A DNA stretch of 64,000 nucleotides, taken from NCBI GenBank assembly GCA_050084515.1, contig CM114271.1, positions 37,014,001 to 37,078,000 on the forward strand. Direction: 5' to 3'. The stretch's first letter is position 1. Every line of letters begins with the position of its first letter. Below the pieces are notes generated by a model. The model did no database searches and had not been told where the DNA came from. It saw only the letters and a program-made list of their open reading frames with translations. This document shows positions 1 to 44,638 of this stretch, piece by piece. The stretch comes from Blasia pusilla (taxonomy: Eukaryota). Made by a program: the position numbers and the translations under genes.

Positions 1-970
1 AATTGGTAATGATTTTGGATGCGGTGAGTATTGAATTACGTTCACATTGTCCATGCTTATGGTAGGCTAACTTCTTACCATCCAAGCTATGAAGATATGC
101 TTATAATGGAATCAACGACGGATCCCTACTTACAACTTTAGATTCATTATGAATTTAGCTCTCACTCAAGATGATATACAACCATTGGTGTTGGTAAATA
201 GGATGGGCAAATAAGGACAATGTTACCTATAGTAGTGATTGTTTTGGTATCTCGAGCTTTTCTTCAAGGAGGACCTAATATAGTACGGGGTGAGCAAACA
301 CATATGCTATTGGAGCCCAACGTCAACAAGCAAGAGCGGTTTGTAAAGTCTCCATATATATGAAAGTGATGGCTATAATGTTAGAGGCATTATAGAGATA
401 TATGTAATATCATTTTGGATTCAATCATACTCATAGCTTTTGAGTATGATTTTTTTCTTTTATCTTTTAAAGAGAAAATATAATATTTAACATAGAGATA
501 AAACATATCATTTTTTGGTGTTAGAGGGGGTATGCCTTCAAGATTCCTTATATTAGAGGGTCATGATGGTATCATTTAGAAAGATTACTTGCAGTTTTTG
601 TACCATGTCATCTTCTCACTGATGGGAATATTGATCCTAGTTTGGTAGTGGTTCCAACAACCTTGAGATATATGCCATGTGGGTCTCCTAGGGAAACAAC
701 CATGATGTTAGTCCATGATTGATGTTGTCTTCATTGACATTTCCTCTTGATTTGGTTCCTTATGAACATTGGATTTATCCTAGATGTTCCAATTTTTTAT
801 GGGTGGATTACAAGATGAATCTTGATATTATAGATTACATGAAGGCGACTAATGGTCAATGCGATGACAAAACAACCAATATCCTCATCTTAGAACCAAT
901 AATATGCATAATATCTATATTTGTTTTGTAGACTATAGGAAGTTAAAGAGACCTAACCACAATTTAGTGG
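1..970 (+). mobile_element. Highly decayed relic of the MTase/PHD-type Gypsy-like element (3' part of MTase joined to integrase C-terminus/PHD and 3' UTR)
   Basis: Manual translation near 18-75 gives DAVSIELRSHCPCLW*ANF, matching DAASVGSRAHRPRLWWTNL. Near 310 it gives LEPNVNKQERF, matching VEPNADEREQAMGF. At 555-690 it gives EGHDGII*KD..PCHL..GNIDPSLVVVPTTLRYMPCG, matching the integrase tail/PHD start. AGAGACCTAACCAC at ~947 matches the 3' UTR motif GGGACCTAACCAC of the other copies. Confidence 0.7.
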
Positions 971-13606: not shown

Positions 13607-13610
13607 CAAG

Positions 13611-16600
13611 GAAGGAGGAAGCTACATAGGATGGCGTGCCTTAGATGCGGAGTTGGGAAGTAGTAGAGGCCCAAAAGGGCAACGGGAGGAAAGAGAGAGC
13701 TGGGCTAAGTCAAGAGGGGGAATGGAGTTATCGAGAGCGCGGACCTACATAGGATGGTGAGCCATAATGCCAAAGCGGGGCAAGAAAATGACAGGCAAGG
13801 TCAAGTTCCAAAAACGGAAGAAGATGGGATAGCCCAGCGCACAGGGACGCGGGCTAGGCAGTACCGCGTGCACGACTGGCGAAGGATGTAGTAGGCCATA
13901 GCTACGTGGTTTATGAGAGTGACGTGGTTAAATTTGCAAGCAAGCTTACGTAGTCAAGGTCGACATGGTAGGGAGGGGCCGGATGTGTTGAAGGTGAGTT
14001 ACGTAGTGGAAGGGCATTTTTGGACTTGGTGTTTTTCGAGCATGGAGGGGATTCACGACGGGAGTTGTTAGTACTTTGTTGACTGGGGGTGAGACAAGTG
14101 ATCCGCACCGATGCTTTGCAATGGAGTGTCAGTATGCTGATGCGGATGGGTAGTCTCCATGCGGTGGTGGGAGGGTTGTTGTGTGTTCGAAGAGAGTGTT
14201 GTGCAACGGAGGTTGCTGCACCACATGGACGAGTGAGTGTTGACGGTGCCGTAAGCTAGAGGGCGTGATCAGGTTACCCATTCGAGTCCCTTTTCGTGCA
14301 CCTATCTTGTGTCATTGAGGGTCCTGGATTGGGTAGAAGTTGGTGTTAGATGGGTGTAGTGATGGTGACGAGTGTAGACTCCTTTCATGTGTAGCATGTT
14401 GGTGGATATACGGCGATTGCCAAGTAGGGGTCACATGTATGACCCGAGAGTGTCAGTAGTTAGGTGAGTTAGTTGGGAGGCTCATGGTGAGCCCAAGTGT
14501 TGAGTGTGCGTGAGGCCAAATGTGTCATCGCGGGATTACCATTAGCGTAGGTGAGCTAGTGAGGAGTGTAGGAGACTCTTGGTGAGTCTGAGTGCTTGAG
14601 CGGGTGAGACAGGGGTGTCATCACGGCATTCTTCGAGGTTTGAAAGAACAAGGTAGTACAAGCAGTGATAGTGGAGTGACACGAAAGTGTGAGATATCAA
14701 GGGGTTTCAAGCGAGGAACCATCCCGATTCCCATCCGTGGTTGGATCGTCATCACTAGACAGCGGGTTTGGTGACAAGATCGCAGACGGGGACGATGATG
14801 CGTGGAGAGAGATGGACGACATGGCCACCGGGGCATGCATCATTTCTCGGGTGTAGTAGGCACCATAGATCTAGATGATTTCATTCAGGAGTTAGACATG
14901 TGGTACAACATCCATGAGATACAGACCACTACGCGGGTTAACCCTTTTATGGCATGGAAGGGGTTGTTCCAGCGCTTGGAGGGTCCGCCGATGGATGATT
15001 ATATGGAGTTCCGATCCCTATACTTTGTAGAGATTGATGCCTGGAGGGTGTATTGGGCTCTAGGGTATGTGTCCACTAGTGGCCGCAAGGCGTATGATGG
15101 TATAGTGAGACCGGAGTGACCTTCACCATCAGCACGGGGACTAGATGGAGAGGATGACAGTGAGAGTGGTGAGGTGGCAGAGACCTCTCGTGATAGAGGA
15201 CCACCAAGTTTCAATTCTATAGTGGAGTTCTTCCGACAATTGAGGAGGAGCTACCAAGGCGTGCGGACCGACGAGCTGAAGAGTCTACTGGATTTTCAAC
15301 GAAGATCAGGTGAGAGTCTAAGGGAGGCGTTCACGCGCATACGACGGTTGATTGTTGCCTCATATGGGGTGACTGAGGCGCAATCAGTGCAGTATTGGTA
15401 TGGGGTGCTGGATGAGGAGCTACGGAGGAGAGTTTGGGATGCGATGTTGCTTCACGCGGAGAAGCCCACATTGAAGGTGGTCTTCGAGTTGTCTGAGCGG
15501 GTAGAGCTCAACATGAGTGAGGAGTAGGTGGTGACCATGGGATTTTCGCGAGATTCGACAAGTCGACAAGTAGGAGTAGACCCACAGGTGTCCCAGCATG
15601 CACTAGTACCATAAGAGCGGGTCGGTGGGCCTAGAGAGCAGGGCAGGTATCGTGAGCCGATGAGGCAACGGCCCATACCGACATATGTTTCCCAACAGGG
15701 ATCGGGGTTGGCTTGTTCGATGTGTGGTAGGTCACATAGGGAGAGGGACTGCCCACAGCATGGGAGAGGAGCACGGGCGCCTGTGATTGCTCAAGAGCCA
15801 CATAAGATGGCCCCACCACAGTTACAATTTGATCATTGTCACTAATATGATCACACTAGGGATAGGTGTTATGATCTTCGCCGGGAGGTACGTCCTGAGG
15901 TAGGCCACAGGACTTGGGGGCAAGAGAGTTGGTGGAGATCGAGTGGTAGATGATCGTGGTGGTAGAGTGCCATCATCAGTCACGAGAGATGGAGGATGTG
16001 CACCCGATGCAGCGCTCCTTACGCACATCGATCAGTTGGAGCTGAGGATTGCTGCCATGACGATGATGCACCTACAGGCAGGCCGAGAGCTGAGAGTATC
16101 TAGTGTGGCGCTAGCCTCCACATCATACCACAACGCAAGTGAGGATTCTGTGGGGATGGGATTTATGCGTAGTGCGGCTCAGGTTGAGGTTGCTATGGTG
16201 GTGACTTGGGATGCCGCGAGAGTAACCGAGCCATCGAGAGGTGGGATTGAGATTATCCCACATGAGGGGACTGATGGGCGGCATGCCAAGGTTCCCAAGT
16301 CGTTCACATTGTCGGAGGCACTACATACACCGTTGATGGTGCCTCAATGATCGGTAGTACCCACAAGTGGGACAAGTGCGTCAACGTCACGAGGATTTGG
16401 AGAGACAAGTCCTATGCCCACTCGGGAGGAGCAAGTGTCAACCATGTTGTTGGAGGTGGCCACTAGGATGAGCCACACTGTGTTTTTTTCCGCCATGGAG
16501 TTGGCGACGTTAGGAGTTGGACTAGCGGAGGTGTTCCGGTTGGTCGCCATGTTATGTGAACGTGGAGAGGTGACTACCTCGTGTTCAGAGGTAGTTTAGG

Positions 16601-18373
16601 AGGTGGTGGACTTGCCCTCGGAGTAGGAGCTCAGGATGTCCCCCACTGAGTCATGGCATGCGGCGGCGGTAAAATTGGTAGACATGCCAGCTCGTACGGC
16701 CATTGAGCGAGCCATGATCACACCACATGTGGTGTTGTTGGATAATTGAGCATGAGTGTTTTGCTTGGTTAGTCCCACAGGTACGGTGTACCACCCGTAG
16801 CGCGTCCTACTTGATTCGGGAGTGCATCCCTTGATGTTAGGGAAGGCGGCGTGTTTGGCGTTGGGATTACGGAAAGGCAACATCGAGCCTTGTCCCTTTC
16901 AGATACAGACCTCTATTGGGGGCGTATCACCCACGTAGTTCATGACTCGACATGAGTTGGTGGTTAGACTCTAGCCATAGCATGAGTCGCATAGTGCGAT
17001 GGTGCGCACTCGGGCGATTATGACACCGGCAAAGTCATATGATGTATTGGTACGGAGTACGGTATTGTACCCTCTAGGTTTCATTCTGGATTTTTGGGAG
17101 GAGACGGTTTCTTATCAGCTAGGGCATCGATCAGGTGGTGGACGCGCATGTGAGCCATCTACCGGTGCATTTTGCAGGGAGTAGAGGTGGTCGACCACGT
17201 GAGGATACGATGACCACGTTGGCAGCATTCACAGGTGGTGTTTGGGGAGAAGAGCACACATGCGGAGGACATTCCCGTAGTGGATAGTCCCATTGAGAGA
17301 CATGTCAGGGTGGATGTCTCTTCCCATGGTGCAAATCTTCTTTATTTTTGTTGGGGACGAGTGTTGAGATGCGTGGAGTGCAGAAGAGCTCGTGAGGCAG
17401 GCATGGAGCTGTCTCTATGTTTGGAGCGGGTTACAAGAGTGCTAGATCTCTTCCGAAGGATCAACGCTGTGGGTTGTTGCAGTGTGGCAGTGTTGCGGGG
17501 ATGACAGCACCAATGGTGCTAGATATGTATAGGATAGGAGATCTTGTCATGTACATATGTGTGTGCTATTTGGAGTTAGGAGGACCCAATTGCCAGCTAG
17601 GGTGGCGGTTGTGGGATCCCAGTGTATATGCGTGAGTATGTTTCATTTATGTGTGGATCTACCCATATGTTGGGGAGGATTGATGTTGTGTGGTGTGAAG
17701 ATGTGACCAATGATGTGGATTGTGTAGCGATGTGTATGTGCACAACAGTTGTCACATCTTATTTCGACGTAGGTAGAGTTCTATCACGTCGACGGCATAG
17801 TGAGTCAACGGGCTGTTTGGGTGTAACTTTATCCCGAGATGTCAGATGAGGTTGGAAATAGGTATGTTGTGCTGGGAACGTTGTTTATGGCAATTTCCCT
17901 ATTTTGGTTTTAGTTTTTCAAGTGACCCGTTGACCGAGTCAATGATGACTCGATAACCTGTGCACGTAGATTACCGTTGGGAGGGCTATTTTTGGGGGAC
18001 GAGTTTTTTGGCTCTTCCCAAGGGTATAAGAGTGAGAGTGATGGCTTTCTCAAGCCATCTTTCTCATGTTGAGCCTTAGGCCTCTCTTGCATAAACGTGT
18101 GTGGGTGTGTAGGAGTTAGGGTGCTAGCATCCGGATTTCCTCATAGCAGAGGGTGGATGTGGTTCGATATGCCAATGTAGATTCATGAATGGAGTTTTAG
18201 GCCGAGTGAGCCATTTTTACTACTCTTGATTTTGTTGTGGGGTCCCAGTGTATATGTTTGAGTATGTTTCATTTATATGTGGATCTACCGGTATGTTGGG
18301 GAAGATCGATGTTGTGTGGTATGTAGATGTGACCATCAATACGGGTTGTGTAGCAATTTGTATGCGCACGACA
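13611..18373 (+). mobile_element. Family-2 element, 3' portion (UTR, gag, protease, MTase motif I, then a deletion to the 3' end)
   Basis: Gag homologous to family 1 (FSGVVGTIDLDDFIQE..NPFMAWKGLFQRLE; VEFFRQLRRSYQGVRT). Knuckle CSMCGRSHRERDC. Protease VLLDSG at ~16805. RVLDLF motif I remnant at ~17440. Ends ...GCGCACGACA at 18373. Confidence 0.85.
17608..18373 (+). repeat. Family-2 split direct repeat 3' end: Y 17608-17747, X 17750-18233, Y 18234-18373
   Basis: The two Y copies both begin GTTGTGGG and end GCAC(A/G)ACA. X is the reverse complement of 29093-29584. Confidence 0.9.
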
Positions 18374-24164: not shown

Positions 24165-27100
24165 TTTGTACAATTGTTGCGTTGGTGAGCCCCATACCTA
24201 CCGAGACGGTTGAGGCATCCTAAGTTGACAGGAGGAGAGCGGCGCCGGATACATTAGTTCCTGAGGAGTTATACGAGTTGCTTTGCATTTAGCATGCAAG
24301 ATTAGGGCACGGTGAAGGGTCCACGGATCCGCATTGAGTTGTCAAGTAACACGCCGATCTTCCGACGACCCTACAGGTATAGTGACATGGAGAGAGCTTT
24401 GATTCAGAGTAGGATCCAGGACTTGGTTGGAGCAGGACTAGTAGAGATGTCGCATTGAGAGTATACATCTGCCACTGTCATGCCTGCCAAGAAGGATGTG
24501 CATGGCGACTGGACGGATAGGCGGATGTGTGGAGATTACCGACGTATCAATCGGCAGACGAAATCGGACAGGTATGCCATGCCCATCCCTGAGGAGATCT
24601 TTGATATGATTGGGCATGCAAAGATCTTCAGTTTTTTAGATCTTCGAGCCAGATACCATCACCTGCCTATCAGATTGGAGGACAAGCACAAGACGGAATT
24701 TTGGGGCATCGATCCTCACGGGAAGGATTTCTTGTACCAGTGGTAAGGATATATTGATGACATCGTCATCTTTAGTGCCATGGTTGAGGAGCATGAGCGA
24801 CATCTAGAGGAGGTGTTTCGACGATTGTAGTTATATGGGCTGAAGCTACATCCAAGCAAGTGCAAGTTCTTCTACGACCAGATTGAGTACTTGGATCATA
24901 CGATATACCCAAGTGGCCTTGGTGTGCAATAAACAAAGGTAGAGGCTATTTCACGCATTCTAAGCCCTACAGATGTGAGTCAAGTTTGTGTATTCATGGG
25001 ATTGGCGAACTTCTATCAACGGTACATCAAGGGTTTCAGCTTGATTGCGAAGCCGCTGACCTTGTTGACCAAGGTGGATTAGGAGTGACACTGGGGGGAT
25101 GAGCAAGAGAGAGCATTTCAGATGCTCAAGGATGGGGCATCCTTTAGAGTTGCATACCGATTGGAGCATGTTGGGTGCTTGGAGCCGTGCTCACCCAACA
25201 TGACGATGATGGTAGAGAGTTCGTGGTGGCTTACGCTAGTTGCTCGAACAACGCTGCAGAGACGAAGCATAGTTTGTATGAGGGTAAGTGCTTGGCTGCA
25301 GTGTGGACTGTCGCACATTTTAGATGTTATCTATTCGGAAATCCCTTTACCATCATTATTGATCATTAGCCACTTAAGTGGTTGATGGAGTGCGACAAGC
25401 TTATAGGGAAGTTTGCGAGGTGGGCTCTTTTGTTGCAAGAGTATGACTTCCAGGTAATGCATAGACCTAGGATGCAGATGGTTTGAGCTATAACCCATGC
25501 CCGAGTCAGCGAGATGCGATTGGATCTCGTTGGCATGGTGAGAGTGATGAGGAGTTGATGCCAGGATGGCATGCGTTAGCCTATTTGGGCTTGTTGGCTA
25601 TAGAGAGCCAGATTGCTGAGACTTCGATGGCGAGGTCTGATGGAGAGTCCTTAGATCCAGAGGCTGGTGAGGAGACAACAGATGGCCGAGACTTTCACGA
25701 CGATAGAGTGGTATTGGAGTACTTGCGTACTTGCAGCGTCGCGAGCACAATGGGTGCTAGAGAGTGGGATCGGATCCTACAGCGAGCCAGATGATTCCGA
25801 TGGGAGGGGACACATGTGTTGCGAGTGTGGAAGGATAGTAGAATGCGTGTAGTGCCTCATCCTTTGCAGAGAGCACGTTTGGTGCGTCATGCCCACGAGG
25901 AGTTGGATCATTTTGGAGTGAAGCGGACGTACAGCTGGTCCAGATTCAGTATTGGTGGCGAGGCATGCAGATTGACGTTTAGCAGTTTGTTGCCAAGTGC
26001 ATGGTATGTGATCGAGTCTGAGCATCATTCAATGCTCGGACTCCACAGTTGCATCTACTTCCGATCATGGATTTAGGTTATAGATGGAGTTTGGATTTTG
26101 CAAGATCTTTGCCTTTGACAAAGCGCCATAGTCGTTATGTGTTGGTGATGGTCGAGCACTTCTCGAAGTGGATAGAGTTGGTTGCATTTCCTAACAAAGC
26201 GAGTGAGGGAGTAGCGTATGCCTTCCTAGATTGAGTGCTGAGGCATTACGGTGCACCAGTTGAGGTGTTGATAGACCAAGGTATAGAGTTTCGCAGGGGG
26301 TTTCAGGCCTTTTGTGATCAGGCACTGATGGACCACCGCACCACTTCACGAGATCATCTCGGGCGCATGGACTAGCGGAGAGGGTTGTGCAGACGGTGAA
26401 GAGAGGATTACGCAAGTATGGCTTGCAGAGAGGTCACCTAGGAGATTGGGACCTTCAATTGCTGTGGTTGGCGATGGGATACAGATTCAGCAGGCAGACG
26501 TCCTTGGCATCTTTCTCACCGTACTTGCTGCTTTAAGGCCATGAGCCAGATTTATATGAGGCCATTCATCGAGATGTTGGTGAGGTGTTGAACCTTGATG
26601 ACTCTGATGTATGGATGAGAGCATGTTCACAGAGGACTGAGTTGTTCCGGAGAGTGATGCCCATGGCGTTTGAGAACTTGGAGATTGCGCAACATCGGGA
26701 TACATTGAGATATGCGACTATTAGGGGGGGTGGTTATCGACCTACTATGCAGAGGTTTCATCAAGAAGATTATGTCTACTTGCAGTAGACGTCACGATCG
26801 ACGTTGGATGTGACTGCAGGGCGCACCATCTTGAGAGTGCGTGAGGTTTTACCACCAGGTGTTCTCTTATTGGAGGGATACGATGATATGGTTTGGAAGG
26901 ACCATATGCGTAACTGTGCGCCGTGTCATCTTCCGAACATTGAAAATACATTTGATTTGAGCTTAGCAGTAGTTTCTGCAGGCTTGCGATGTATGTTGTG
27001 TGGTTCTGCCCGTGGTGCAGCCACTATGCTAGTCTATAATGGATGTTCGAGAGGATGGCATATGGCATGCTTAACGCCATCTCTCACTAGGATTCCTCAA

Positions 27101-28069
27101 GGATGATGGATGTGTCCTAGATATACATAGAATAGGTAGTTCTACATTCCCACTTGTGTCTGTGATGATATGGATGACAAGAAGGCGACGAACGATGGGG
27201 CCACATGCGCACCCGATCTTCTTGCTCTTAGCGTCCGAGAGATGTATGTCATGGTAGGTAGGGATAGATGGCTATCTGGAGTTAGAGGGACCTAACCACT
27301 AGCTAAGCAGGAGATTGGAGATATTTTGGTACCTATTGTCTCGTTGTTTGGATGCCATGAGTTAGCATGGGATCGTGCGTGTTTGTGTGTGTGTTCGATG
27401 ACAACGATGTATGTTATGTAGTGATGTGTATGCGCACGACAACTGTCACATCTTTTAGGATAGATCGGTGAGATCTAGTAGAGCGCCTTTGCGAGTAGTG
27501 GAGGACAGGTTCAGGAGGTCGAGGATGACCTGCTGAGGCTCCGAGAAACTTGAGAGAGCAGGTTCCCCCTTCGTTTCGACTCATTTGGAGCCATATTGAG
27601 AAACTTACTATTTTAGGCAAGTACCATTTTGAGTATATGGTCGACTTTATATTTATGGTAAGTAGCCCTTTACCTCCTACACCAGGTCAAGAGCCAAGGG
27701 GGTGACTTGGGAGCATAGGTTACCATGGAGAGAGCTTGGGAGAGGGGAGGGGTATACCTCAAGGAGAGAGAGCTTGAGAGCTCATTCTCTCTTTGTTGAA
27801 CCTCTTGGCATGAGGCAGCGGAGCTATGGTCTTGCTTGCCTTGTGTGTGTAACCCAAGCCTCTCATTAGGAGAGTGGGTTTGGATTGACATTGAGAGAGA
27901 CATGTGAGTGTGCACACATTTGAGAGCTATGGTGTTGAGAGAGATTTCACCTTATTTTTATTGGAGATATTTTGGTACTTCTTGTCTTGTTGTTTGGATG
28001 CCATGAGTTAGCATGGGATCGTGCGTGTTTGTGTGTGTGTTCGGTGTAGCGATGTGTATGCGCACGACA
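24165..28069 (+). mobile_element. 3' half of family-1 element (RT, RNase H, integrase, PHD, Y-X-Y end)
   Basis: RT motifs RMCGDYRRIN and YIDD (~24750). RNase H VVAYAS..YEGKCLAAVW..DH. Integrase WSLDFA..VEHFSKW. PHD CMLCGS..CSRGWHMACL. Ends GCGCACGACA at 28069, followed by CTTG. Confidence 0.92.
27314..28069 (+). repeat. Family-1 split direct repeat 3' end: Y 27314-27441, X 27444-27960, Y 27961-28069
   Basis: Both Y copies run TTGGAGATATTTTGGTAC...GCGCACGACA. X is the reverse complement of 13087-13606 and shares the diagnostic ATTTCACCTTATTTT. Confidence 0.92.
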
Positions 28070-28073
28070 CTTG

Positions 28074-29584
28074 GAGCCATAATGGCTCCTTCCGTCCTTC
28101 CTTATTCCACGAGTTTGGGGCCATAATGGCTCCTTTCCTTCACTCCTACACCTTCGGAGCTCACCCAACTTCGTCTGCCCAATGTCCTGAATCTCCTCTC
28201 TCCCAATTCCACTTCAAGCACCTCTCTCTCTACCCAACGTCTCTCCACCTAAGTTGGGACGGTCGTGTCCTCTCTCTCTACGCCTTAATGTGGGTGCACC
28301 GCCCTATGCGGAGGACCCCCCTTCTGAACCTAGAGTGCTCGCTCCAGCTCCCGGCTCTTCTTCTCCCGACCTGCGGTTTCTTCTCCGTCTCCTTCAAACC
28401 CACTCCTTCCTTCCCGCGTCCTAGGGCACGACGCCCTATACACGGCTCGCATTACTAGAGCTCCGGGCTCCTTCCACCCTCGCGTGCCCCACTCCAAACT
28501 GGCGCGCTTGTCGCGTTGCACCTCCCAGCTCTACTGCTACCTCCTTGTGACACGGCTCCCTATGGAGTTGTGACCCTGTTTCTTTCCACTCCCATTTCCG
28601 TTGTCAACAAGGCCGTATCCCGGTGCTCGGCCATATCCTTCCCGGATGCGTTTCCTTTCCCACCCTCTCCTTGTGCGAGCCTTTGACCTACCTGCGGTGC
28701 CCAGCTGCTTAGATCTAAACCTCCCACATAACCTGCGTGACCCAACTCTAGTCGTCCTAGGAAGCTATTGCCTAGCCCTTACTAGCCCCCTTCATGGCGG
28801 CTGCTGTTCCCACAACTAATACTGTTCTCTCCCGACACTCACCGCTCACCCATCGATGATAGTCTTCGCGCTACACCTGAGCGCTACTACTGCTACACTC
28901 TGATGCTCTCCCCCATCAACCCTCACTGTCAAGATTCAAGAAAAATGGACAGTGGTTCCGCTCACGGACTCCCAAACATAAAAAAATGCCACCAACAACG
29001 TCAACCAACATCTCATGGACTTCCCAACCGAGGCAATTCGCTTGCCTACATGCAAACAACGAATTTCCACCAGCGCATTGACATCTTTCTCATGTTAAAT
29101 CAAGAGTAGTAAAAACGGCTCACCCGGCCTAAAACTCCACTCATGAATCTACATCGGCATATCGAACCACATCCACCCTCTACTATGAGGGAATCCAGAT
29201 GCTAGCACCCTAACTCCTACACACCCACACACGTCTATGCAAGAGAGGCGCTCCTAAGGCTCAACATGAGAAAGATGGCTTGAGAAAGCCATCCCTGTCA
29301 CTCTTATACCTTTGGGAAGAGCCAAAAAACTCTTCCCCCCAAAATAGCCCTCCCAACGGTAACCTACGTGCACAAGTTACCGGATGACCGTTGACTCGAT
29401 CAACGGGTCAGCTAAAGGACTAAAACAAAAATAGGGAAATCGCCATAAACGAAGTTCCCAACACAACAGACTTGTCGCCAACCTCATTTGACATCTAGGG
29501 ACAAAGTTACACCCAAACTGACCAACTGACTCACTATGCGGTCGACGTGATAGAACTCTACCTACGTCGAAATAAGATGTGACA
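28074..29584 (-). mobile_element. Family-2 element, 5' portion (X repeat 29093-29584 and purine-rich 5' UTR)
   Basis: Starts TGTCACATCTTATTTCG on the - strand, identical to 17750. The flank AACC at 29585-29588 is the reverse complement of GGTT at 18374-18377. Confidence 0.88.
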
Positions 29585-33000: not shown

Positions 33001-33104
33001 TAAAAATCTATCTTCTAATAAAATTATATTTATTGCTCGTTTAAATTTTCTAAAATTTGAATTTTCCTTTCATCCATCGCTTTGGGATCTTGCATTTGTT
33101 ATTT

Positions 33105-33861
33105 TGTTGTGCGCATACACATCGTTGTCATCGAATACACACACAAACACACACGATCCCATACTAACTCATGGCATCCATACACAGAGGCGAGAAGTAC
33201 CAAAATATCTCCAATAAAGTAAGATCCAATCTCTCTCACAACACCATAGTTCTCACATGTGTACACTCTCACATGTCTCTCTCAATGTCAAACCAAACCC
33301 ACTCTCCTAATGAGAGGCTTGGGTTACACACACAAGGCAAACAAGACCATAGCTCCGCCGCCTCATGCCAAGAGGTTCAACAAAGAGAGAATGAGCTCTC
33401 AAACTCTCTCTCTTGGAGGTACCCTCCCTTCCCTCTCCCAAGCCCTCTCAACGGTAACCTATGCTTGCAGATCACCTCCTTGGCTCTTGACCTGATGTAA
33501 CGGGTCAAGGGAAACTTCCCAAAGTGGAAAGTCAACTATCCATAACATGGAAACTTACCTGAAATAGTAAGTTTCTCTATATGGCTCCATATGAGCCGAA
33601 ACGAAGGGGAAACCTGCTCTCTCAGGTTTCGCGGGGCCTCAACATGTCATCCTCGACCTCTTGGGCGTGTTCTCCACTACTCGTGCAGACGCTCTGCTAG
33701 ATCCCACCGATCTATCATAACAGTTGTGATAGCTATCGTGCGCATACACATCGCTACACAACATACATTGTTGTTATCGAATACACACACAAACACACAC
33801 GATCCCATGCTAATTCATGGCATCCATACATAGAGGCGAGAAGTACCAAAATATCTCCAAT
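33105..33861 (-). repeat. 3' split repeat block: Y 33734-33861, X 33215-33731, Y 33105-33215
   Basis: GTGCGCATACACATCG...CCAAAATATCTCCAAT occurs twice, flanking a copy of 43595-44112. Confidence 0.93.
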
Positions 33862-34047
33862 CGCCCCCCTAGCTGGTGGTTAGGTCCCTCTAACTCCAGA
33901 TAGCCATCTATCCCTACCTACCACGACATACATCTCTATGACGCTAAGAGCATAAAGCCCGGGTGCTCATGTGGCCCCATTGTTAGTCGCCTTCCTGTCA
34001 TCCATGTCACAGAAAAATTCGGAATCAAAACCTATCTAGTATCTCCT

Positions 34048-35330
34048 CTATGTACATCGGGGACACATCCATCGTCCCCGAGGAACCCTAGTGAGAGGTG
34101 GCGTCAGACATGCCATATGCCAACCTCTCGAACATCCATCACACACTAGCATCGTGGCCGCACCACAAGCAGAACCACACAACATACAACGCAAGCCTGC
34201 AGGAACTACTTCTAAGCTCGGATCTAATGTACCATCAATTTTAGGAAGGTGACATGGCGCACAATTACGCACATGGTCCTTCCATACCATACCATCGCAT
34301 CCCTCCAGCAAGAGAACACCGGATGGCAAAACGTCATGTACTCTCAGAATAGTGTGCCCTACAGTCACATCCAACGTCGTTGGTGCCGTCTGCTGCAAGT
34401 AGACATAATCTCCCTGATGAAACCTCCGGATAGTTGGTCGATAACCACACTCCGAATAGTCGCATACCTCAACGTATCTTGATGCTGTGCAATCGTCAAG
34501 TTCTTGAATGCCATGGGCATCACTCTCCAAAAAAACTCAGCCTTCTGAGAACATGCTCGTATCCATACATCTGGGTCATCAAGGTCCAGCACCTCACTAG
34601 CATCTCGACGAATGGCCACAGGTAAATCTGGCTCTCGGCCATAAAGTAGCAAGTACGGTGAAAAAGACGCTAAGGATGCCTACCTGCTGAATCTGTATCC
34701 CATCGCCAACCATGGCAACTGGAGGTCCCAATCTCCTAGGTGACCTCTCTGCAATCCATACTTGCGTAAACCCCTCTTCACCATCTGCACAACTCTCTCC
34801 GCTAATCCATCCGCCTCAGGATGATCTCGCGAAGTTGTGCGGTGGTCGATCAACGCCTATTCACACAAGGCCTGGAACTCACCGTGAAACTCGGTACTCT
34901 GGTCTGTCAACACCTCAGCCGGTGCGCCATAATGACTCAAGACTCGATCTAGGAAGGCATACGCTACTCCATCACTCGCTTTGTCAGGCAATGCAACCAA
35001 CTCGATCCACTTCGAGAAGTGCTCGACCATCACCAACACATAACGACTGTGACGCTCCGTCAAAGGCAAAGGTCCTGCAAAATCCAAACTCCATCTATAC
35101 CCTAAGCCCATGATCGGTAATGGATGCAACTGTGGAGTTGGAGCATTGAACGATGCTCGGACCCGATCACACACCATGCACCTGGCAACAAACTGATGAA
35201 CGTCAGTCTGCATGCCTCGCCACCAATACTGAATCAGGAGCAAGCTGTACGTCCGCTTCATCCCAAAGTGACCCAACTCCTCATGGGCATGCTACACTAG
35301 TCGTGCTCTCTGCGAAGGATGCGACACTAC
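34048..35330 (-). pseudogene. DDE integrase with C-terminal PHD finger (PHD ~34051-34195)
   Basis: HHCC motif HAHEELGHFG..CMVC, then WSLDFAGP, VLTDQ and GLAERVVQ. C4HC3 PHD CMLCGSACGAATMLVCDGCSRGWHMACLTPPLTRVPRGRWMCPRC. Confidence 0.93.
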
Positions 35331-35699
35331 GCGTACTCTACCATCCTCCCAAACCCTCAAAACACGTGTCCCCTCCCAACGAAACAGTCTGGCTCGATGT
35401 AGGATCCGATCCCGCTCTCTAGCACCCACGGTGCTCATAACGCTGCCAGTACGAAGGTACTCCAAGACTACTCCATCATCATGAATATCTCGGCCACCTG
35501 TCGTCTCCTCATTGGCCTTGGGATCCAAGCATTCTCCACTAGATCTCGCCATCGAAGTCTCCACACTCTGGCTCTCCATAGCCAACATGCCTAAATAGGC
35601 TGACGCGTGCCATCATGGAATTGACTCCTCATCACTCTTTCCATGCCATCGAGCTCCAGTCGCATCTCGCTGACTCGGGCATGGATTACAACTCAACCC

Positions 35700-37050
35700 A
35701 TATGCATCTTGGTTGAGCATCCCAGGTCTATGTACCACCTGAAAATCATACTCCTACAACAACAAAGCCCATCTCGCAAGCTTCCCTGTAAGCTTGTCGG
35801 ACTCCATCAACCACTTCAGTGGTTGATGATCAGTGATGATGGTAAAGGGGTTGCCAAATAAATAACACCTGAAATCCACGACAGCCCATACTGCAGCCAA
35901 GCACTCACCCTCATACGAGCTGTACTTCACCTCTGCGGCGTTGTTCGAGCGGCTAGCGTAAGCCACCACGAACTCTCTACCCTCATCATCATGTTGGGTG
36001 AGCATCGCTCCAAGCCCCAACATGCTCCAATCTGTGTGCAACTGGAAAGGACGCCCCCTTATCGGTCTCCTCAAGATCGGCGCAGACGTCAACTTGTCCT
36101 TGAGCAACTGAAATGCTCGCTCTTGCTCATCCCCCCCAGTGCCACTCGTGATCCACCTTGGTCAGCAAGGTTAGCGGCTTTGCAATCGAACTGAATCCTT
36201 TGACGTATCGCCGATAGAAGTTCACCAATCCCATGAATGCGCGAACACGACTCACATCTATAGGGCGTGGAATGCGTGAGATGGCCTCTACCTTTGTCAG
36301 CTAAACACCAAGGCCCCTTGGATATATCGTATGACCCAAGTACTCAATCTGGTCGTAGAAGAACTTGCACTTGCCTGGATGTAGCTTCAGCCCATGTAAT
36401 TGCAATCGTCGAAACACCTCCTCTAGATGTCGCTCATGCTCCTCAAGAGTGACGCTAAAGACTACGATGTCATCAATATAACACCTAGCAAAATCCAGAC
36501 CAGCCAAGATCCTATCCATGAACCTCTAAAACTCAGCCGGGCCATTCTTTAACCCAAATGGTAAGAACCGCCACTGGTACAAACAATCTTTCCCGTGAGG
36601 ATCGATGCCCCAAAATTCCTTCTTCTGCCTATCCTCCAATCTGATAGGCAGCTGATGGTATCCGGCCCGCAAATCCAATGAACTGAAGACCTTTGCGTGA
36701 CCAATCGCATCAAAGATCTCCTCTTGTTGGTGGGCATGGCATACCTATTGGACTTTGTCTTGCAAAGGCTCGATTGATAGGTCGATAATCCCCACACATC
36801 CGCCTATCCGTCCAGTTGCCATGCACATCCTTCTTGGCGGGCATGTGGTTGAGTGTGAATGCATACTCCCCATCGACATCTCCACTAGTCTGCTCCGACC
36901 AAGTCATGGATCCTACCTCGTATCGAGCCCTCTCCATATCATGATTGTGGCAAAGGGTTTTGAAGATCGACGTATCACTGACAACTCAATGCGGATCCCC
37001 GGTCCCTTCAAAGATACCCAAATCCTCCATGCTAAATGAAGCGGCTACCT
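35700..37050 (-). pseudogene. Ty3/Gypsy-type reverse transcriptase and RNase H
   Basis: RMCGDYR, CYIDDIVVFS, KCKFF..YLGH, LHTDWSMLGLGAML, YEGECLAAVWAV and TDHQPL. Confidence 0.95.
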
Positions 37051-37479
37051 ATAACTCCTGAGGAACTGATGTATCCGGCCCCGCTCTCCTCATGTCAACT
37101 TAGGGACCATATTTGGCTCCCAAGTCTCCATCGTGACTACGGTAAGACTTTCCGACGAGGGTATCGTGGGTTCAAAAACACTCGGCCGCTCTCCTACAGC
37201 CAACTACAAACTTTCATCTCCTCCACGTGCAGTGCTCGGAACCACGCTCGATGTTGTGGCTATCATCTCCTGGCGTACTTGCAAAACATCCCAACAAGTC
37301 CAAGGGTGTCTCTCCCGATCTCCTCTCTGGTGTAGAACTCCTCGGCTCTCGCCCCCAGCCACTACCTCCACCATCTCGGTAGGCATGGGGCTACCAATTG
37401 CAATTTGTATGTGGTAGTGATCTATGTCGCGATCTCATCATAGACTTAGCCCACTCCCAACAAGAGGATCCATGTCGAG

Positions 37480-39424
37480 TATTTCAGGTCCATCGCTCTG
37501 ACCCAAGACATGACGCTTGTCGTTGATACCTCGACATTGCCCTAGCGATCTGCCGTCACTCATGAGGGAAATCCCATCGCTTGCTCTCTCTCGTCGGCGT
37601 TGGGCTCCACCAACCGCTGAACGTGGTCATCCCAAACCAAGCTGGGACTGGCCTCCTTGTATGCATAGGAAGAAGGAAAACTCACAAACATGGGCAAGGC
37701 TACCCGCGGCTTGCCTACCCTGTTGACCACAATCAACGGTGGTCGATCATCGTGCCTCACTACTTGTTATCGACGACATGGATCAAAAATGGAATCCACT
37801 AACAAATGGGAGGGGCCCTTCACTCTCGCATATGCCCTTTGTAACACCGTATGTGTCGCGACCCTCATGACCAAACAAGTGCCAAGCGGAACATCGGAAC
37901 ATTAGCGGGCTCACGCTAAGATGGTTTGCGCGTTGGAGTTGTCTCAAAGAGGAGACAAGAGATGAGACGCGAGCGAGAAGCCGCGTTTCAGATGTGATGG
38001 TCGCGACTCGGAAACCTGGACCAAACGCGGAATGAGACTTGAAAGAAGTCGAGTCTAGGAAGTGGGTTGCCAAAGGAAAGATCCGGACTTGGAACGCCAC
38101 TTGTGTTTGAGAGTTTCCGACTGTATTTATGGCCATAACTTTTAGCGCCAAGATGCATTTTGAGCAAATAAGAGTGCGTTGGAAAGCTTATGGAGAGCCG
38201 GTTCAAACGCACCAAAGATCGCTGCAAACGCATAAGCAGAGACCGAGATACGACCCGAAAACGACTGTAAGTGGAGTCGGGTCGAGGGCCACAATGAAGG
38301 GCCCGAACCTCTTTTCCCAAAGGGGAGGGGTTATTGGAGAACTCCAGAAGTACTAGTAAGGGGGAAGGTCTCCGAGAGTGCTTGGAACCCAAACCCCACT
38401 TTGGGCCATGGGGCGCTCAAGGGCATGGAACGGAACGCGAGTTTGGGCGTTGGGTTGGAGAACCTGCACCAAGTCTATTGAGGCGATTTTAGACATCCCT
38501 CTTGGATTTCACGCCGCGACTCAATTACTTGGGTCTCGGTTCGGAACTCACACGAGGACCGTTGAACAGTTGGGATTGCTAGGCGTGTAAGTGCCGTTTC
38601 AGATCCCTGGACTAACCAGGAAGTCTGTTCCAAGTCTTGAAGGACTTGCCATGTGTTGGGAGCTAGGAATTAAGGAAGGTTGAGCTTGATGAGACGCCGA
38701 GTTGAGGACTCGGTGGGTTGGAACGCCGGTTGGCCAAACCCGACTAACGAGAGTGCGTGTTTGGGTGCAGATCGGCGATGAGTTCGTGACCTACTGAACA
38801 CACGCTTCCGCAACACTAAAGATTGACGTTCAAGGAGAGTAGGGGCGCGACAGTATGGGGCACCAAGTTGGTCCACCATAGACGCGGGCGGTGGGCTCTA
38901 GAACCTACACTCGCCGCATCCAAGAACACTGCTTGGCCGATCTAGGCACGCACCTGATGAGCACTCGTCACCATCCGTGACTTGGAGTCTCCTAAGATTG
39001 GCACATTCTCCGGAATGTAGGCTGGAGATCGAGACTCGTGCTCTTGCAACTGCCGTAAGACCCTCAACATCTCCCAAAACAACAAGGACCGAGTGTCAGC
39101 CAACCCGCTGCCTCGTCTAGCACTCGATTGGCCTTGACATGGCCAACCGGCAATGACCAAATCAATGGTCCCTTCCTGCTCTAAGTCATGCGCCCCCAAC
39201 AACGAAATATCCCTCTGTAGGGAACTCTGGTACCCTGTACCGCGGACGTAGACAATAAGTCGGGAAAACGAGGGGCGAATCGCTGCGCCACATGTCATAG
39301 TGAGACGCGCCTCGCAACATCATCACTCTCCACATACAGGTACTGTTGCACTCGCACTCCTACCTGCAAAACAGCAGCTAACCCGGTGCTAATCCCTCCA
39401 AAGAGATCTAACACTCGAATACCC
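37480..39424 (-). pseudogene. DNMT3-like C5 cytosine methyltransferase domain, interrupted by a solo LTR
   Basis: Motif I IRVLDLFGGISTG (~39385-39424), II YLYVE, III DI, IV IDLVIAGWPCQGQS (~39125-39165), V RSLLFWE, VI ENV (~39003-39011), VIII AHRPRLWWTNL (~38865-38900), IX EREQAMGFP (~37565-37595), X RHVLGQ (~37500). Confidence 0.92.
37854..38852. mobile_element. Solo LTR (999 bp) of an unrelated family inserted in the MTase domain
   Basis: Termini TGTCGCG...CGCGACA with a 5-bp TSD GTATG at 37849-37853 and 38853-38857. No coding motifs recognised inside. Confidence 0.88.
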
Positions 39425-39849
39425 TCCTCTGGGATACACCACAAAATGGGTGTGGTATCCAAGGGTGTCATCGTTGCACTCCCTGCTACCTCGTTTTCTT
39501 CAGACCCATCACGCTCCGGTGCAAACGCCTTGCTCCACACGGTCTGCACGTGCTCATCTGCCAATCGTCGAAGCTCCTTAGTCGAGCCCCACAATGGCAC
39601 CTCTCCTCCACGGAATGATGCGGCTACCATAACACTCCTCTCCATAGAAATGTCAGGAATGGGAGTATCCTCTGCATGGACATGTCCCTCAATCAAATCA
39701 CTAGGCCAAGTGATGGCACTGCTAAATGCTACTAAGGTCGCCACCTCTCTTGGCCGTCGCTCGATCACTGCACCTATGAATCGAATGGGTAATGAGCTAA
39801 GGCGCCCATCACGTGACTGCCATCCTGGTCTGTAGGACGCTGACTCCTC

Positions 39850-42361
39850 CTAGTAATCCAGGGAAAACCCCATCGAGTATAACACTGCTCCACCAACCAA
39901 GACGTCGTAGGACTCTGCATCAGTCACTATCGCCTTGGCTCGCACCACGGACTCATCTGTAGGATGTCTCGGGCGAATCCTCACCACGACCTCCTGTCGG
40001 GTGATGTACTGTGTGGTACTCGCTCCACCCAAGGATGTCTATATCTGGAATGGACAACGCTCCATATCGGCTCTTGTCAAGCCCAATCCTCTGAATGACG
40101 CTTTCCCCAACATCAGGGGTTGCGCTCGTGAATCCAACAAGACGCGCAGCGGACTAAAAGCTCTACCTCCAAGACTCACCAACTGGAAGACCTCTCCTCG
40201 GTTATCCAACAACACAACACCATCTAGACGCTCTATCGCGGGTCTAGCGGGCATCTCCGCCATCCTAGCAGCCGCAGCCTGCCATGAATCTGACGTAGAC
40301 GGCCCGAGCATCCTCTCCAAGGGCAGGTCTATCACCTCTGAACGTGATGTAGGAATTCCAACTCCGTGCACACATAGTGAAGCAGCCAGCCAAAAAGCCT
40401 TGGCGGGCATACCCCCCAACGTCATAACATCGGAAGCAGAAAATAAAGGAGTGCGGTACAAAATGGTGGCTGCCCCCAACAACGTGCTTGATACATGTCC
40501 CTCATGGGCATCAACAATAGGAGTCGTTGCACTCGCTTCTCCCATTGCCCTCCATGTCTGCACACCAACAACATTGCCAACTCTCCATGAACTTTGATGA
40601 GGACCCATCAATGGGGTCCTCATCGCTTCGGACGACGTGAAAGATTGAGGAAGCCTAGTTTGTTTTCTGGCTTACCCTCGCTATGGATCCAACTCTGCAG
40701 CTGCTCCACGCATCACAACGGTGGCGGCCTCCATCTGGGCAACCCCGCACATCCAACCAGGATCCTCCATATCTCTAGTTGCTCCATATGATGTCGATGC
40801 CACGGATCCGGCATCGAGTAACCTCAATATCATAGCGGCAATCTGTTCATGTAGGTGCTGTATCTGAGCAGCCATCCCAGCCTCACATCCGATGTCTCCC
40901 TCGGCGCGTCTAGGTGGTGGTACTCTACCTCCTCCACGGCAACTCCACCACCCAATCGGACAGCTCCAGCTCCTCGTCCCCTAACAGGACCACCTGGTGC
41001 ACGATCTCTAGCCCACCCGGACCGGCTACTCGCTTTGGTGCCCTCTCTGGCCCTCGGTCCGGACGTAACTCAGGATGTAAACCGAAACACCTTGCACGTG
41101 TATGACCATACTTCTCACAATAGTCACACTGATAACCTCCTGGTGCAGCACCATCTCCTCCTCCATGCTAAGGCACACGTCCGTGACCCTGACGAGTGCA
41201 ATCGCGCTGATGATGGACTCCACCATATGACCAACAAGTAATAGTAGGGGGCTGCTGTTGAGCCGCATATGAAGGCGCAAGTCTCTGTGGCACGGCCTCC
41301 CAGTATTCCCCCTAAGCTCGTGGTGCCACAGTCGACCTATCCCGGAGTCCACGTTCTTTGCCGCGTGTGGTGCGACCAATCGTCGGATCGCTCTCTTGAG
41401 AACCCATGGTGGCTACGCTCTCCTCCGCCATGTTGCGCTCAATGTTCTCGGCGCTCCTAAAAACATCTCTCAATGTAGGGGAGGTGTTCATAAGAAGCAG
41501 CCCCTCCCGCACCCGTGTCCGCAGGGTCCGGTCCAACATCGCGTACCATGACTGGATAGCCTGAGCCTCTGTCACCCCCTGAGTGACGTTGATCAACCAA
41601 CACAAGCGAGTGTTAGCCTCATGCAAACTCTCACAAGGGCGCCTCTGGAAGTCGTGGATGCTCCGCAACTTCTCCGTTTGTACCCCATGGTAGCTCGCCC
41701 TCAACTCAGCAAAGAACTCAACCACAGGGTTGAACCTGGGACCAACCCGACTAGACAGTACAAGTGCTCAAGTGCAAGTGACCCCTCCTAAAATGTCACT
41801 AGTAGAAGAGGAAGTAGCCTCTCATGACTCCTCCTCCTCATCTGGGAATATCTCCGTCCATGACACATAATGTGGGTCATAGTAGAGCCTCCACGCCTCG
41901 ATCTCACGTGCATATCTCTGAGAGAACTCATGGTAATCGTCTATGGGTGCCTCCTCTAAATGCTGGAACATACCGTTCCATGCTATAAATGGGTTGAACT
42001 CTCTAGAGTTCCTTGCCCGTTGGGAGTCGCACCAACTCCTAAACTCTACTATGAAATCGTGCAACTCAATCATACCTACTGCACCTGAAAACCTGCGCGG
42101 TCCTCTACCCCGGTCGTCCATCTCGTACACCCAACTGGTAGGACCACTCACAATGTGTGGCGATATGCTCACAAACTCCTCTACACCCTCCCCCTTGTCT
42201 GATGATGACACAGAAGGAGGTCGAGGTGGTCCCTCACGTGGAGACCCTCGGAACCTCGCGCCACTCCGCGTAAAACCTCTAGAGCTACTCTTAGGTTCAT
42301 CACCTCGCCTCTCAAAGTGCTGAACAGAAGCTGTGATGACACTCGTGCCCCTCTCACCCAA
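39850..42361 (-). pseudogene. Gag (with zinc knuckles) and aspartic protease of the full-length element
   Basis: Gag-like ORFs 41822-42361 and 41312-41725. Knuckle region ~41085-41275. Protease VLLDS(R/G)AQ and YDVLVG. Confidence 0.85.
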
Positions 42362-43594
42362 TCACTCTCGCCTTGCGAGTAATCCCTCAATCACTCATCC
42401 CAAACATGCGGCACTCGATCTACACTCTTCCTCCCCGAGACGTGTAACGTGCTGCAACAAGCGGCGTGGTGCGGAAAATCGACCAGGCTATCATCTCATT
42501 GACAACCTACCCTCAACTCCGGACATCCCTAAACCACATACATAAATGATGTCTATGTCCCCTAAACCACATACATCACAACATAGCTGAACAAATGTCA
42601 ATGAAATCAAAACTCAAACACCATAACAATCAGGAGGTCATCGCGCCAAAATCACGGTGTGATTCAGCGGAACGGTTCATGACAAAAGCTGCGATGGGAC
42701 GGTGGCTCCTCAATCAAAACAAAGCATGTGGTGGCGGCGCCAAGTCGGCGTGGCAAGAATCAACACGCGTCGTGGAAGACCCTCCACTCAACATAGCGGA
42801 AATCAAAATGGCACCAAAGGATGGACAACGCGACGACGCGGTGGCGGCCAAAACAAAGCATGTGGTTGTCGAGAATGATGGCAAGCAAAGGATGGACAAC
42901 GCACGATGAACCGTTGACGGTGACGGTTGACCGTTGATGGTGACGGCCGACCGGTGACGGTGACAGTTGACCATTGATGGTGATGGTTGACCATCGATGG
43001 TGGACCATTGACGGTGAATATGACGGCGATGGCTGCCGCCGGCGTGGTGGCTGGTTTAGGGTTTGAACAATTTAACCATAAAAATCTCCTAGCAATGGCA
43101 GTTTTGCAAGATTGACCATAACTTTTTGCTCGCAACTCCAAATTGCGCACTGCTTTTTGTATAGCGTGCACAGCTTCACGATCTACGACAATGTCAAAAA
43201 ATATTTAGAATTGAACATTTCAGTAAAAATTGACAGGGACTGTCGTAAATCCCAATGTCTCTTTCTCTTACACAAAATTTGGCATCGCTTCCGCGCTGAT
43301 TTCTCCCAACGAAAATGTAAAACCTATAAAAATACAAATCAGCAAGCTACATGGTGCTCCTGAGAGCATTGGCATGGGGCAACCCGCCCCCATAATCAAT
43401 CTCTATCAGAAACTGGGCAGCGCTTCCCTGCGCCACTCTTCCACACGAAAAATCGGCAAATGCAAAAAACAATCAAAGCAGCCCTTGCTCCGGTGAGCAC
43501 TCCCATGAGACGCTGAACGGGGAACACGGTCCCCAACCTGCAAAAATAGTGAGTGACCAGCGAGCTCCCCCATGAAGCTCTATCACTCTCTCTT

Positions 43595-44112
43595 TGTAAA
43601 GTAAGATCCAATCTCTCTCACAACACCATAGTTCTCACATGTGTGCACTCTCACATGTCTCTCTCAATGTCAAACCAAATCCACTCTCCTAATCAGAGGC
43701 TTGGGTTACACACACAAGGCAAGCAAGACCATAGCTCTGCCGCCTCATGCTAAGAGGTTCAACAAAGAGAGAATGAGCTCTCAAGCTCTCTCTCTTGGAG
43801 GTATACCCCCTTCCCTCTCCCAAGCCCTCTCAACGGTAACCTATGCTCGCAGGTCACCTCCTTGGCTCTTGACCTGTTGTAACGGGTCAAGGGCCACTTC
43901 CCAAGTGGAAAGTCAACTATTCCCAATATGGAAAGTTACCCGAAATAGTAAGTTTCTCTATATGGCTTCAAATGAGCCGAAACGAAGGGGAAACCTGCTC
44001 TCTCAGGTTTCGCAGGGCCTCAACATGTCATCCTCGACCTCCTAGGCCTGTCCTCCACTACTCGTGCAGACGCTTTGCTAGATCCCACCGATCTATCCTG
44101 ATAGTCGTGACA
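43595..44112 (-). repeat. 5' X repeat (LTR-like, 518 bp, TG...CA)
   Basis: Matches 33215-33731. On the - strand it is followed by AAGAGAGAGTG rather than a TGG-type PBS. Confidence 0.93.
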
Positions 44113-44638
44113 ATTTTGTGCATCTCTAGTTTGGACTCTTCTTTTCTATATCCACCTTGTTTGTATCATCAATCTTTAATCCCTCATTTTATCTACTATT
44201 GTCATCCATCCTTGACTCAAGTGCACCCCTTTGTCTTTTGATATGTTTCTAGTTCCATTAACATAGTATAGCCATATGTCCATCCTTTTATCGGGCTATC
44301 ATTGCATCATTTCTTTTGTCTATCTGTCCATCATATTTGTGAATTTTTTTCAAAATGTTCTGCTAGATCCCACCGATCTATCCTAACAATCGTGACAATT
44401 TTGTGCATCTCTAGTTTGGACTCTTCTTTTCTATATCCACCTTGTTTGTATCATCAATATTTAATCCCTCATTTTATCTACTATTGTCATCCATCCTTGA
44501 CTCAAGTGCACCCCTTTGTCTTTTGATATGTTTCTAGTTCCATTAACATAGTATAGCCATATGTCCATCCTTTTATTGGGCTATCATTGCATCATTTCTT
44601 TTGTCTATCTATCCATCATATTTGTGAATTTTTTTCAA
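44076..44638. repeat. Tandem duplication, ~285-bp unit spanning the element terminus and flank
   Basis: TGCTAGATCCCACCGATCTATCC...GAATTTTTTTCAA starts at both 44076 and 44361. Confidence 0.92.

Follow-up and report, generated by a model that had tools for sequence, protein, structure and literature searches.

A stretch of 64,000 nucleotides from Blasia pusilla (contig CM114271.1 of assembly GCA_050084515.1, forward-strand positions 37,014,001 to 37,078,000; here called the window) carries, between window positions 33105 and 44112, a retrotransposon in which the direct repeats are split into an X-coding-Y-X-Y arrangement. This element, which we call copy A, is a degenerate and immobile member of a plant Ty3/Gypsy-type lineage that encodes a Dnmt3-like methyltransferase. 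The lineage is a further case of a layout already noted in print; the leads that its anatomy gives to a mechanism are new. On balance we lean towards an account in which a self-primed cDNA, with a long terminal repeat (LTR) made up of Y+X, would be circularised and then opened by integrase at a CA-NN-TG joint of the two-LTR circle.

Self-comparison of the window by BLAST, together with a repeat search, defines copy A as a single element; its coding strand is the minus strand, because all Pfam matches fall there. The two X repeats align at 33215-33729 and 43597-44110 (515 nt, 93.4% identity, E=0) and the two Y repeats at 33119-33215 and 33765-33861 (97 nt, 94.8% identity, E=5e-37). Read by eye, the limits of Y are wider than the alignment, at 33105-33215 and 33735-33861. 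In coding orientation the element runs from X (44112 to 43597) through the coding region to Y-X-Y (33861 to 33105). Its termini are of the TG..CA type (start TGTCAC, end CAACA), and ATTT flanks it on both sides, so that the target-site duplication (TSD) lies outside the terminal Y. Both the layout and the position of this duplication had been proposed in a first-pass annotation made from the sequence alone, and both were borne out. Copy A was already in place when a 285-bp tandem duplication formed at 44076-44657, with repeats that are 97% identical and that comprise the final 37 nt of the 5' X, the TSD and 244 bp of flanking sequence.

The coding content is that of a Ty3/Gypsy element with two additions. 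Four of the ten minus-strand open reading frame (ORF) pieces of copy A have Pfam matches, to a PHD finger, to H2C2 and rve, to RNase H and to C5 DNA methylase. Every reading frame is broken, and the copy is therefore dead. Its relatives, taken as 80 loci from metagenome contigs that were scanned with the RNase H piece of the element, include one locus, L043, that is near-intact. Here ORF1 comprises protease and DNA methylase (Asp_protease_2 at residues 708-757, E=2e-4, below the Pfam cut-off), and ORF2, separated from it by one stop codon, comprises RVT_1, RNase H, H2C2, rve and PHD. The order of parts is gag-like region, protease, Dnmt3-like methyltransferase, reverse transcriptase (RT), RNase H, DDE integrase and PHD finger. 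The best solved match to the L043 Pol is Ty3 Gag-Pol (7q5b, E=4.4e-98), followed by the Ty3 RT (4ol8), and the best solved matches to its methylase are DNMT3A, 3B and 3C, with E about 2e-7. The closest named proteins are from Marchantia, Calypogeia and Sphagnum, as would be expected of a bryophyte host. About 1 kb within the methylase region of copy A (37848-38833) is missing from L043 and from expressed relatives, and DNA contigs hold copies both with and without this insert.

The lineage of copy A thus has the protease-RT-RNase H-integrase order, the kinship with Ty3, the TG..CA ends and the 4-bp TSD of the Ty3/Gypsy elements (Metaviridae), in agreement with the DDE-integrase Gypsy assignment made at first pass. 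The mark that it lacks is the possession of identical LTRs as integrated ends, since X stands alone at the 5' end, against Y-X-Y at the 3' end. The methyltransferase, between protease and RT, and the PHD finger, after integrase, had both gone unmentioned in the first-pass annotation. Chromoviruses carry a chromodomain at the position held here by the PHD finger, which may guide targeting.

Split repeats of this kind invite comparison with the DIRS, Ngaro and PAT elements. In a cycle like theirs, the repeats would let a shorter transcript be restored to a circular cDNA, which would be inserted by site-specific recombination. The repeat layout is identical, and de Mendoza et al. (2018) term it DIRS-like. 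Such a cycle is, however, largely refuted by the coding content: no tyrosine recombinase (PF00589) was found in the ten minus-strand ORF pieces of the window or in any of the 12 L043 ORFs that are 90 aa or longer. TG..CA ends together with variable 4-bp TSDs are characteristic of a DDE integrase, and the polypurine tract and primer site described below occupy LTR-type positions. We consider a DIRS-like cycle very improbable.

Could a conventional element with two X LTRs instead have acquired its Y-X-Y end secondarily, through a local duplication or a nested solo insertion? The vicinity does contain tandem duplications, the 285-bp one beside copy A being an example. Against this, all three 3' ends in the window have the X-coding-Y-X-Y form, which is found in two diverged families there and in eight distinct metagenome copies. 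The duplicated target sites tell the same story. Of ten complete metagenome copies examined for a 4-bp TSD flanking the X start and the Y end, eight have a perfect one (L009, L079, L021, L030, L037, L047, L051 and L075), the others matching at three of four bases (L072) and two of four bases (L057). The TSD sequence varies among copies. TSDs at both X ends, which the first-pass annotation had linked to conventional LTRs as the alternative to its reading, were found in no copy. The TSDs lie always outside Y. Moreover, the X pair and the Y pair of one copy have diverged about equally, at 93.4% and 94.8% identity in copy A and 92.1% and 93.8% in L079. A secondary rearrangement is scarcely credible on this evidence, which supports the view that X-coding-Y-X-Y is a constant feature of the lineage rather than the result of local duplication.

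The predicted priming sites lie at positions that do not coincide with the integrated ends. A G-rich polypurine tract, CCAGCTAGGGGGGCG, stands directly 5' of the inner Y in copies A and C; it is decayed in copy B and present in most of the related loci. At the other end of the element, the bases that immediately follow the 5' X (CAAAGAGAGAGTGA in copy A) can pair with a stretch inside X, in a duplex of 14-24 bp. The duplex is 24 bp long in the L079 type, 17 bp in copy G of the second family and 14 bp in copy A, where 13 Watson-Crick pairs and one G-U pair are formed with X positions 337-350. Pairing begins at the first base past X in six of the seven copies tested, which represent three diverged families. 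Although their sequences here are unrelated, the three families agree in the distance of the paired stretch from the X end, 180-183 nt. A TATA-like box is found 19-30 nt upstream of the paired stretch. Between L079 and L047 the duplex differs at two positions, and each change is matched on the other side. Pairing was assessed by an anchored score, compared with 398 internal control windows; an earlier statistic, the longest perfect run against shuffled sequences, was dropped as undiscriminating in low-complexity sequence. The observed score was reached by none of the 398 controls in five copies, copy A among them, and by one in copy G. A tRNA-type primer site was also considered and rejected. 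No TGG adjoins X, and the TGG stretches that lie 20-27 nt downstream vary between families, no tRNA set having been compared. Minus-strand synthesis thus looks to be self-primed in the manner of Tf1, as judged from these complementarities.

The joints between the repeats provide the second line of evidence. The X|outer-Y joint consists of the X end, as it stands before the primer site, and the Y start, as it stands after the polypurine tract. It is exact in six of nine rows, representing four of seven distinct copies; of the inexact joints, those of L079 and L012 are off by 1-2 nt and that of L009/L048 carries a 17-nt filler. At the inner Y|X joint, copies A, B and C and 18 locus rows share a CA-NN-TG palindrome, with NN being GC, AC, AT or GT; it represents the two integrated element ends abutted across 2 bp. 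A further locus, L033, at 3229-3878, has the polypurine tract, Y, NN and X(1-338), followed by primer-site sequence and then by the reverse complement of X(156..1), with the inverted X start next to the flank. This single case looks like a snap-back cDNA that was cut at the internal end site and integrated.

How might these features arise from one cycle? Because the primer sites lie at the X end and before the inner Y, the LTR of the cDNA would be Y+X, and because the ends of this primer-defined LTR differ from the integrated ends, the integrated copy would be a circular permutation of the cDNA. Minus-strand synthesis would start, as in Tf1, from the bases after the 5' X, paired with the stretch some 180 nt upstream in X that is just downstream of the TATA-like box, and plus-strand synthesis would start at the G-rich tract directly before the inner Y. 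The product of reverse transcription would be a linear cDNA, Y-X-coding-Y-X. Its circularisation, joining the U5 end to the U3 start, would create the X|outer-Y joint, and reopening at the palindromic CA-NN-TG joint in one LTR would then yield X-coding-Y-X-Y. CA-3' ends with 2-nt overhangs are the normal substrate of integrase. A staggered cut by integrase at ACA|NN|TGT of the two-LTR circle could produce two such recessed ends, ready for insertion. A non-standard integration step is likely in any case, to judge from the positions of the predicted priming sites.

The main rival to this scheme dispenses with the circle. RT itself would make a linear X...Y-X-Y molecule, for example through an extra end-to-end template switch that carries synthesis from the end of U5 to the start of U3, and integrase would then trim the molecule as far as the first CA/TG sites. 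A templated or clamped switch would account for the precision and uniformity of the X|outer-Y joint, and the L033 snap-back indicates that aberrant strand switches can become integrated. The scheme requires, however, a regular non-homologous switch that has no precedent. An integrase cut about 115 bp inside the left end would still be needed, and the neat two-end palindrome at the inner joint is not explained by the switch alone. For these reasons we regard an RT-made linear molecule as unlikely, and prefer the opening of a two-LTR circle.

A second 3'-end form is found among the metagenome relatives, in which X-coding-Y is followed directly by flank. Typing of 36 rows, with rows of the same flank merged and L022 and L039 corrected by hand, gave 23 distinct typable 3' ends, eight of the X-coding-Y-X-Y form and 15 of the X-coding-Y form; a further five were untypable (L006, L033, L052, L056 and L074). 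L012 and L014 are near-identical and yet differ in form. Terminal branch lengths do not set the two forms apart (median 0.045 for X-coding-Y-X-Y, n=8, and 0.054 for X-coding-Y, n=15; Mann-Whitney p=0.32; L033 and L074 excluded). The shorter form possibly results from Y-by-Y deletion or from collapse in short-read assembly, or else is a primary product; a one-LTR circle or a linear cDNA could give rise to it. A copy of this form, having no 3' R region, should be unable to replicate further.

One could argue from these numbers that X-coding-Y is the basic unit and that the X-Y tail was added later, for example by a second small X-Y element that landed at its end. X-coding-Y is indeed common in the metagenome contigs, and six of eight complete copies of this form have a perfect TSD. 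Without a 3' X, however, there is no second R region for strand transfer, and no replication via the predicted primer sites would be possible. The X-Y tail meets Y at a fixed 2-bp spacer and not at a TSD. No free or solo X-Y unit was found in the 80 loci or the window, although loci chosen by RNase H give this search little power. Altogether the later addition of a tail seems to us to have very little chance of being correct.

Three stranded RNA runs, deposited under the same species label and aligned to copy A, show coding-strand transcription of the family, which extends over the inner Y|X joint. The reads skip 37851-38854 in the methylase region, with 13, 7 and 23 reads in the three runs supporting the joint from 37850 to 38855. 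An apparent RNA joint from 44113 to 33733 was rejected, as it merely represents reads over the inner Y|X joint that were mapped to the other X copy. Close to the X|outer-Y joint, read starts pile up at 33209 and 33233; these piles may be RNA 3' ends or clipped alignments.

Several considerations weigh against the opening of a two-LTR circle as the route of integration. No circle, cDNA end or transcript end has been seen directly, and the cut by integrase at the internal joint is an unproven proposal. Copy F, which has an indel at the site, fails the pairing test, and the pairing could instead reflect a leader hairpin that serves some other role. Chance may have brought together the sequences in L033, the lone snap-back case. 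Most of the RNA reads show 90-95% identity and therefore come from other copies, so that they fix no transcript start or end. Finally, the X-coding-Y form predominates among the distinct metagenome 3' ends, which may reflect Y-by-Y deletion or assembly collapse. Our preference for the two-LTR circle as substrate survives these points. The stronger proposition, that this is a lineage of DDE-integrase retrotransposons in streptophytes that would propagate only via two-LTR circular cDNA, opened at a built-in palindromic joint, we advance tentatively, as having rather less than an even chance.

Table 1. Features of copy A and of related copies in the window, with the evidence for each
Feature	Position	Strand	Evidence and remarks
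TSD ATTT, 3' flank of copy A	33101..33104	.	Read from sequence; same as 44113-44116
Outer Y (Y_out); in coding orientation ends ...GCGCACAACA, the 3' terminus of the element	33105..33215	-	94.8% identical to inner Y
X3, 3' copy of X	33216..33732	-	93.4% identical to 5' X; limits read by eye
2-bp spacer in inner Y|X joint; CA-NN-TG, decayed to TA-GC-TA in copy A	33733..33734	-	Joint shared with copies B and C and 18 locus rows
Inner Y (Y_in)	33735..33861	-	Self-comparison and reading
Polypurine-tract-like motif CCAGCTAGGGGGGCG, immediately 5' of inner Y	33862..33876	-	Conserved in copies A and C; decayed in B; present in most related loci
PHD finger, Pol C-terminus	34054..34188	-	Pfam PF00628, E=4.2e-11; PHD at same place in L043 ORF2
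Integrase: H2C2 zinc domain, DDE core, C-terminal part; frame broken	34449..35291	-	PF17921 (9.4e-15), PF00665 (6.7e-11), tblastn
RNase H domain	35754..36161	-	Pfam PF17917, E=8.8e-35
Reverse transcriptase region, frame broken	36133..37167	-	tblastn with L043 ORF2 residues 4-350, 46% identity; RVT_1 in L043
Dnmt3-like C5 cytosine methyltransferase region, split by ~1 kb (37848-38833)	37464..39849	-	PF00145, E=1.3e-10; tblastn
Protease-like region	39872..40470	-	tblastn with L043 ORF1 residues 571-1000
Gag-like region	41039..42124	-	tblastn with L043 ORF1 residues 67-445, 23% identity, E=7e-14; no Pfam match in copy A
Putative self-priming primer-binding site CAAAGAGAGAGTGA, first bases past 5' X	43583..43596	-	Pairs with X positions 337-350
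X5, 5' copy of X; starts TGTCAC, the 5' terminus of the element	43597..44112	-	Self-comparison and reading
Stretch in 5' X pairing with primer-binding site; predicted 5' end of genomic RNA	43763..43776	-	Pairing; TATA-like box ~30 nt upstream; start inferred
TSD ATTT, 5' flank of copy A	44113..44116	.	Read from sequence
Copy F: 5' X (13089-13606) and leader; CAAG at 13607-13610, matching CTTG of copy B	11503..13606	-	Self-BLAST and reading
Copy C: second family, internally deleted; ends polypurine tract (17593-17607)-Y2-X2-Y2; GGTT next at 18374-18377	14590..18373	+	Self-BLAST and reading
Copy B: 3' part, same family as A; ends Y(27314-27433)-X-Y(27960-28069); CTTG next at 28070-28073	24219..28069	+	Self-BLAST and reading
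Copy G: second family, 5' X2 (29097-29584) and leader; AACC at 29585-29588 (GGTT in coding orientation); putative self-priming site after X2	28074..29584	-	Self-BLAST and reading

The other copies in the window (Table 1) repeat the arrangement. Self-BLAST verified the Y-X-Y blocks at 27314-28069 and 17608-18373, with Y pairs 92.8% and 85.8% identical, where the first-pass annotation had placed them. The three TSDs that it gave, ATTT, CAAG and GGTT, also hold, the latter two belonging to pairs whose halves lie on opposite strands. Thus the X end of copy F at 13606 is flanked by CAAG and the Y end of copy B at 28069 by CTTG, both on the plus strand as read, and both are CTTG in coding orientation. 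Similarly, AACC adjoins the X2 end of copy G at 29584 and GGTT the Y2 end of copy C at 18373, both being GGTT in coding orientation. The region 5718-29588 is a nested, rearranged cluster, in which a same-family composite (F as 5' part, E, and B as 3' part) lies inside a second-family element (G as 5' part, C as 3' part). As read from these flanks, its arrangement would fit an F/B element nested in G/C, with about 5718-24218 inverted afterwards. Within it, at 9332-13606, X and about 1.4 kb of leader occur twice in tandem, 11495-13591 repeating 9332-11488, with the second X start lying directly against internal sequence of the first copy; a tandem duplication would account for this, as would nested insertion and subsequent recombination.

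Copy C lacks everything from the start of the methylase to the polypurine tract (4581-10209 in coordinates of copy A) and is a non-autonomous deletion derivative that retains the Y-X-Y end. That its Y-X-Y is an insertion with a TSD of its own was considered and rejected, as the apparent GGTT before Y2 (17607-17610) overlaps the first bases of Y2. Two further sites may be remnants of other family members. One, at 533-972 on the plus strand, weakly resembles (59% identity) the sequence that immediately precedes the polypurine tract, and also gives PHD-like tblastn matches; the other is a solitary CA-NN-TG joint-like motif at 50516. An element of Ty1/Copia type, the class being assigned by eye from the translation, lies at 54137-59426 on the minus strand. 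Its LTRs, at 54137-54661 and 58824-59369, are 94% identical, and an 848-aa open frame (56122-58668) is followed by an RT-bearing frame.

In the textbook view, LTR retrotransposons and retroviruses integrate linear cDNA, and circles are dead ends. In the present lineage, it is difficult to account for the genomic anatomy without a circle, or some equivalent joined form, as the productive substrate. If the stronger proposition, of propagation only via two-LTR circles, is true, the lineage would provide, among eukaryotic retroelements, a counterpart of the circle-junction transposition known from bacteria, and a mechanistic bridge between LTR elements and DIRS-like elements. There is also a practical consequence. 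Standard LTR finders will mis-delimit or miss such elements in bryophyte and charophyte genomes; as had been foreseen at first pass, the pairing of X with X gives the wrong limits. The presence of a Dnmt3-like enzyme together with a PHD finger has further relevance for the interplay of transposons with host chromatin.

The nearest known relative in design is KnitGypsy-Dnmt3 of Klebsormidium nitens, described as having repeats arranged as in DIRS and the domains of Gypsy (de Mendoza et al. 2018, Nat Commun 9:1341, legend to Fig. 4c). Like copy A and its kin, it combines a Gypsy-type Pol, a Dnmt3-like methyltransferase within the polyprotein and A-coding-B-A-B repeats. The TSDs, primer sites, joint palindrome and mechanism given here are, in contrast, not part of the main text of that paper, as far as it was available to us. 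A 2025 paper likewise places some DNMT3 genes in streptophyte retrotransposons. No Klebsormidium proteins were among the matches from protein searches with the family of copy A. In the literature, with the supplements of the 2018 paper outside the search, we found no account of TSDs, primer sites, palindrome or mechanism for such elements, nor any report from a bryophyte. The first-pass annotation had suggested a hybrid architecture with a distinct replication mode, possibly in an undescribed class of retrotransposon. The hybrid nature stands, a DDE integrase and 4-bp TSDs being combined with A-coding-B-A-B repeats and, likely, with non-standard integration. The undescribed class does not, since the layout was already in print for KnitGypsy-Dnmt3 and the Pol is an ordinary Ty3/Gypsy one.

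Elements of the Tf1/sushi type are self-primed, with a primer-binding site after the LTR that is complementary to a stretch inside it. The present elements resemble Tf1 in having a putative primer-binding site directly after X, complementary to an inside stretch at the predicted RNA start. They differ in that Tf1 has two ordinary LTRs as its integrated ends, whereas here the integrated ends lie inside the primer-defined LTR and the pairing is longer (14-24 bp). Self-priming has also been predicted in clades of plant chromoviruses, which are Gypsy elements (Neumann et al. 2019).

With the DIRS, Ngaro and PAT elements, for which A1-coding-B1-A2-B2 repeats, an internal joint with abutted termini and a proposed circular intermediate have been described (Malicki et al. 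2020 NAR), the lineage shares split direct repeats and the internal joint of abutted termini. Those elements, however, have a tyrosine recombinase and no DDE integrase, and here the reverse is true, with variable 4-bp TSDs in addition. Split direct repeats are thus not exclusive to tyrosine-recombinase elements.

The closest parallels for the proposed integration step come from elsewhere. In the IS3 and IS30 families, a circle junction of abutted ends with a short spacer is cut by a DDE enzyme for insertion, and in retroviruses the palindrome of the two-LTR circle can be cut by integrase, as a side reaction. The IS3 and IS30 elements are bacterial DNA elements, and the retroviral cut is no more than a by-product; in the present lineage, by contrast, every LTR permanently contains the abutted joint, and cutting there would be the main route of integration.

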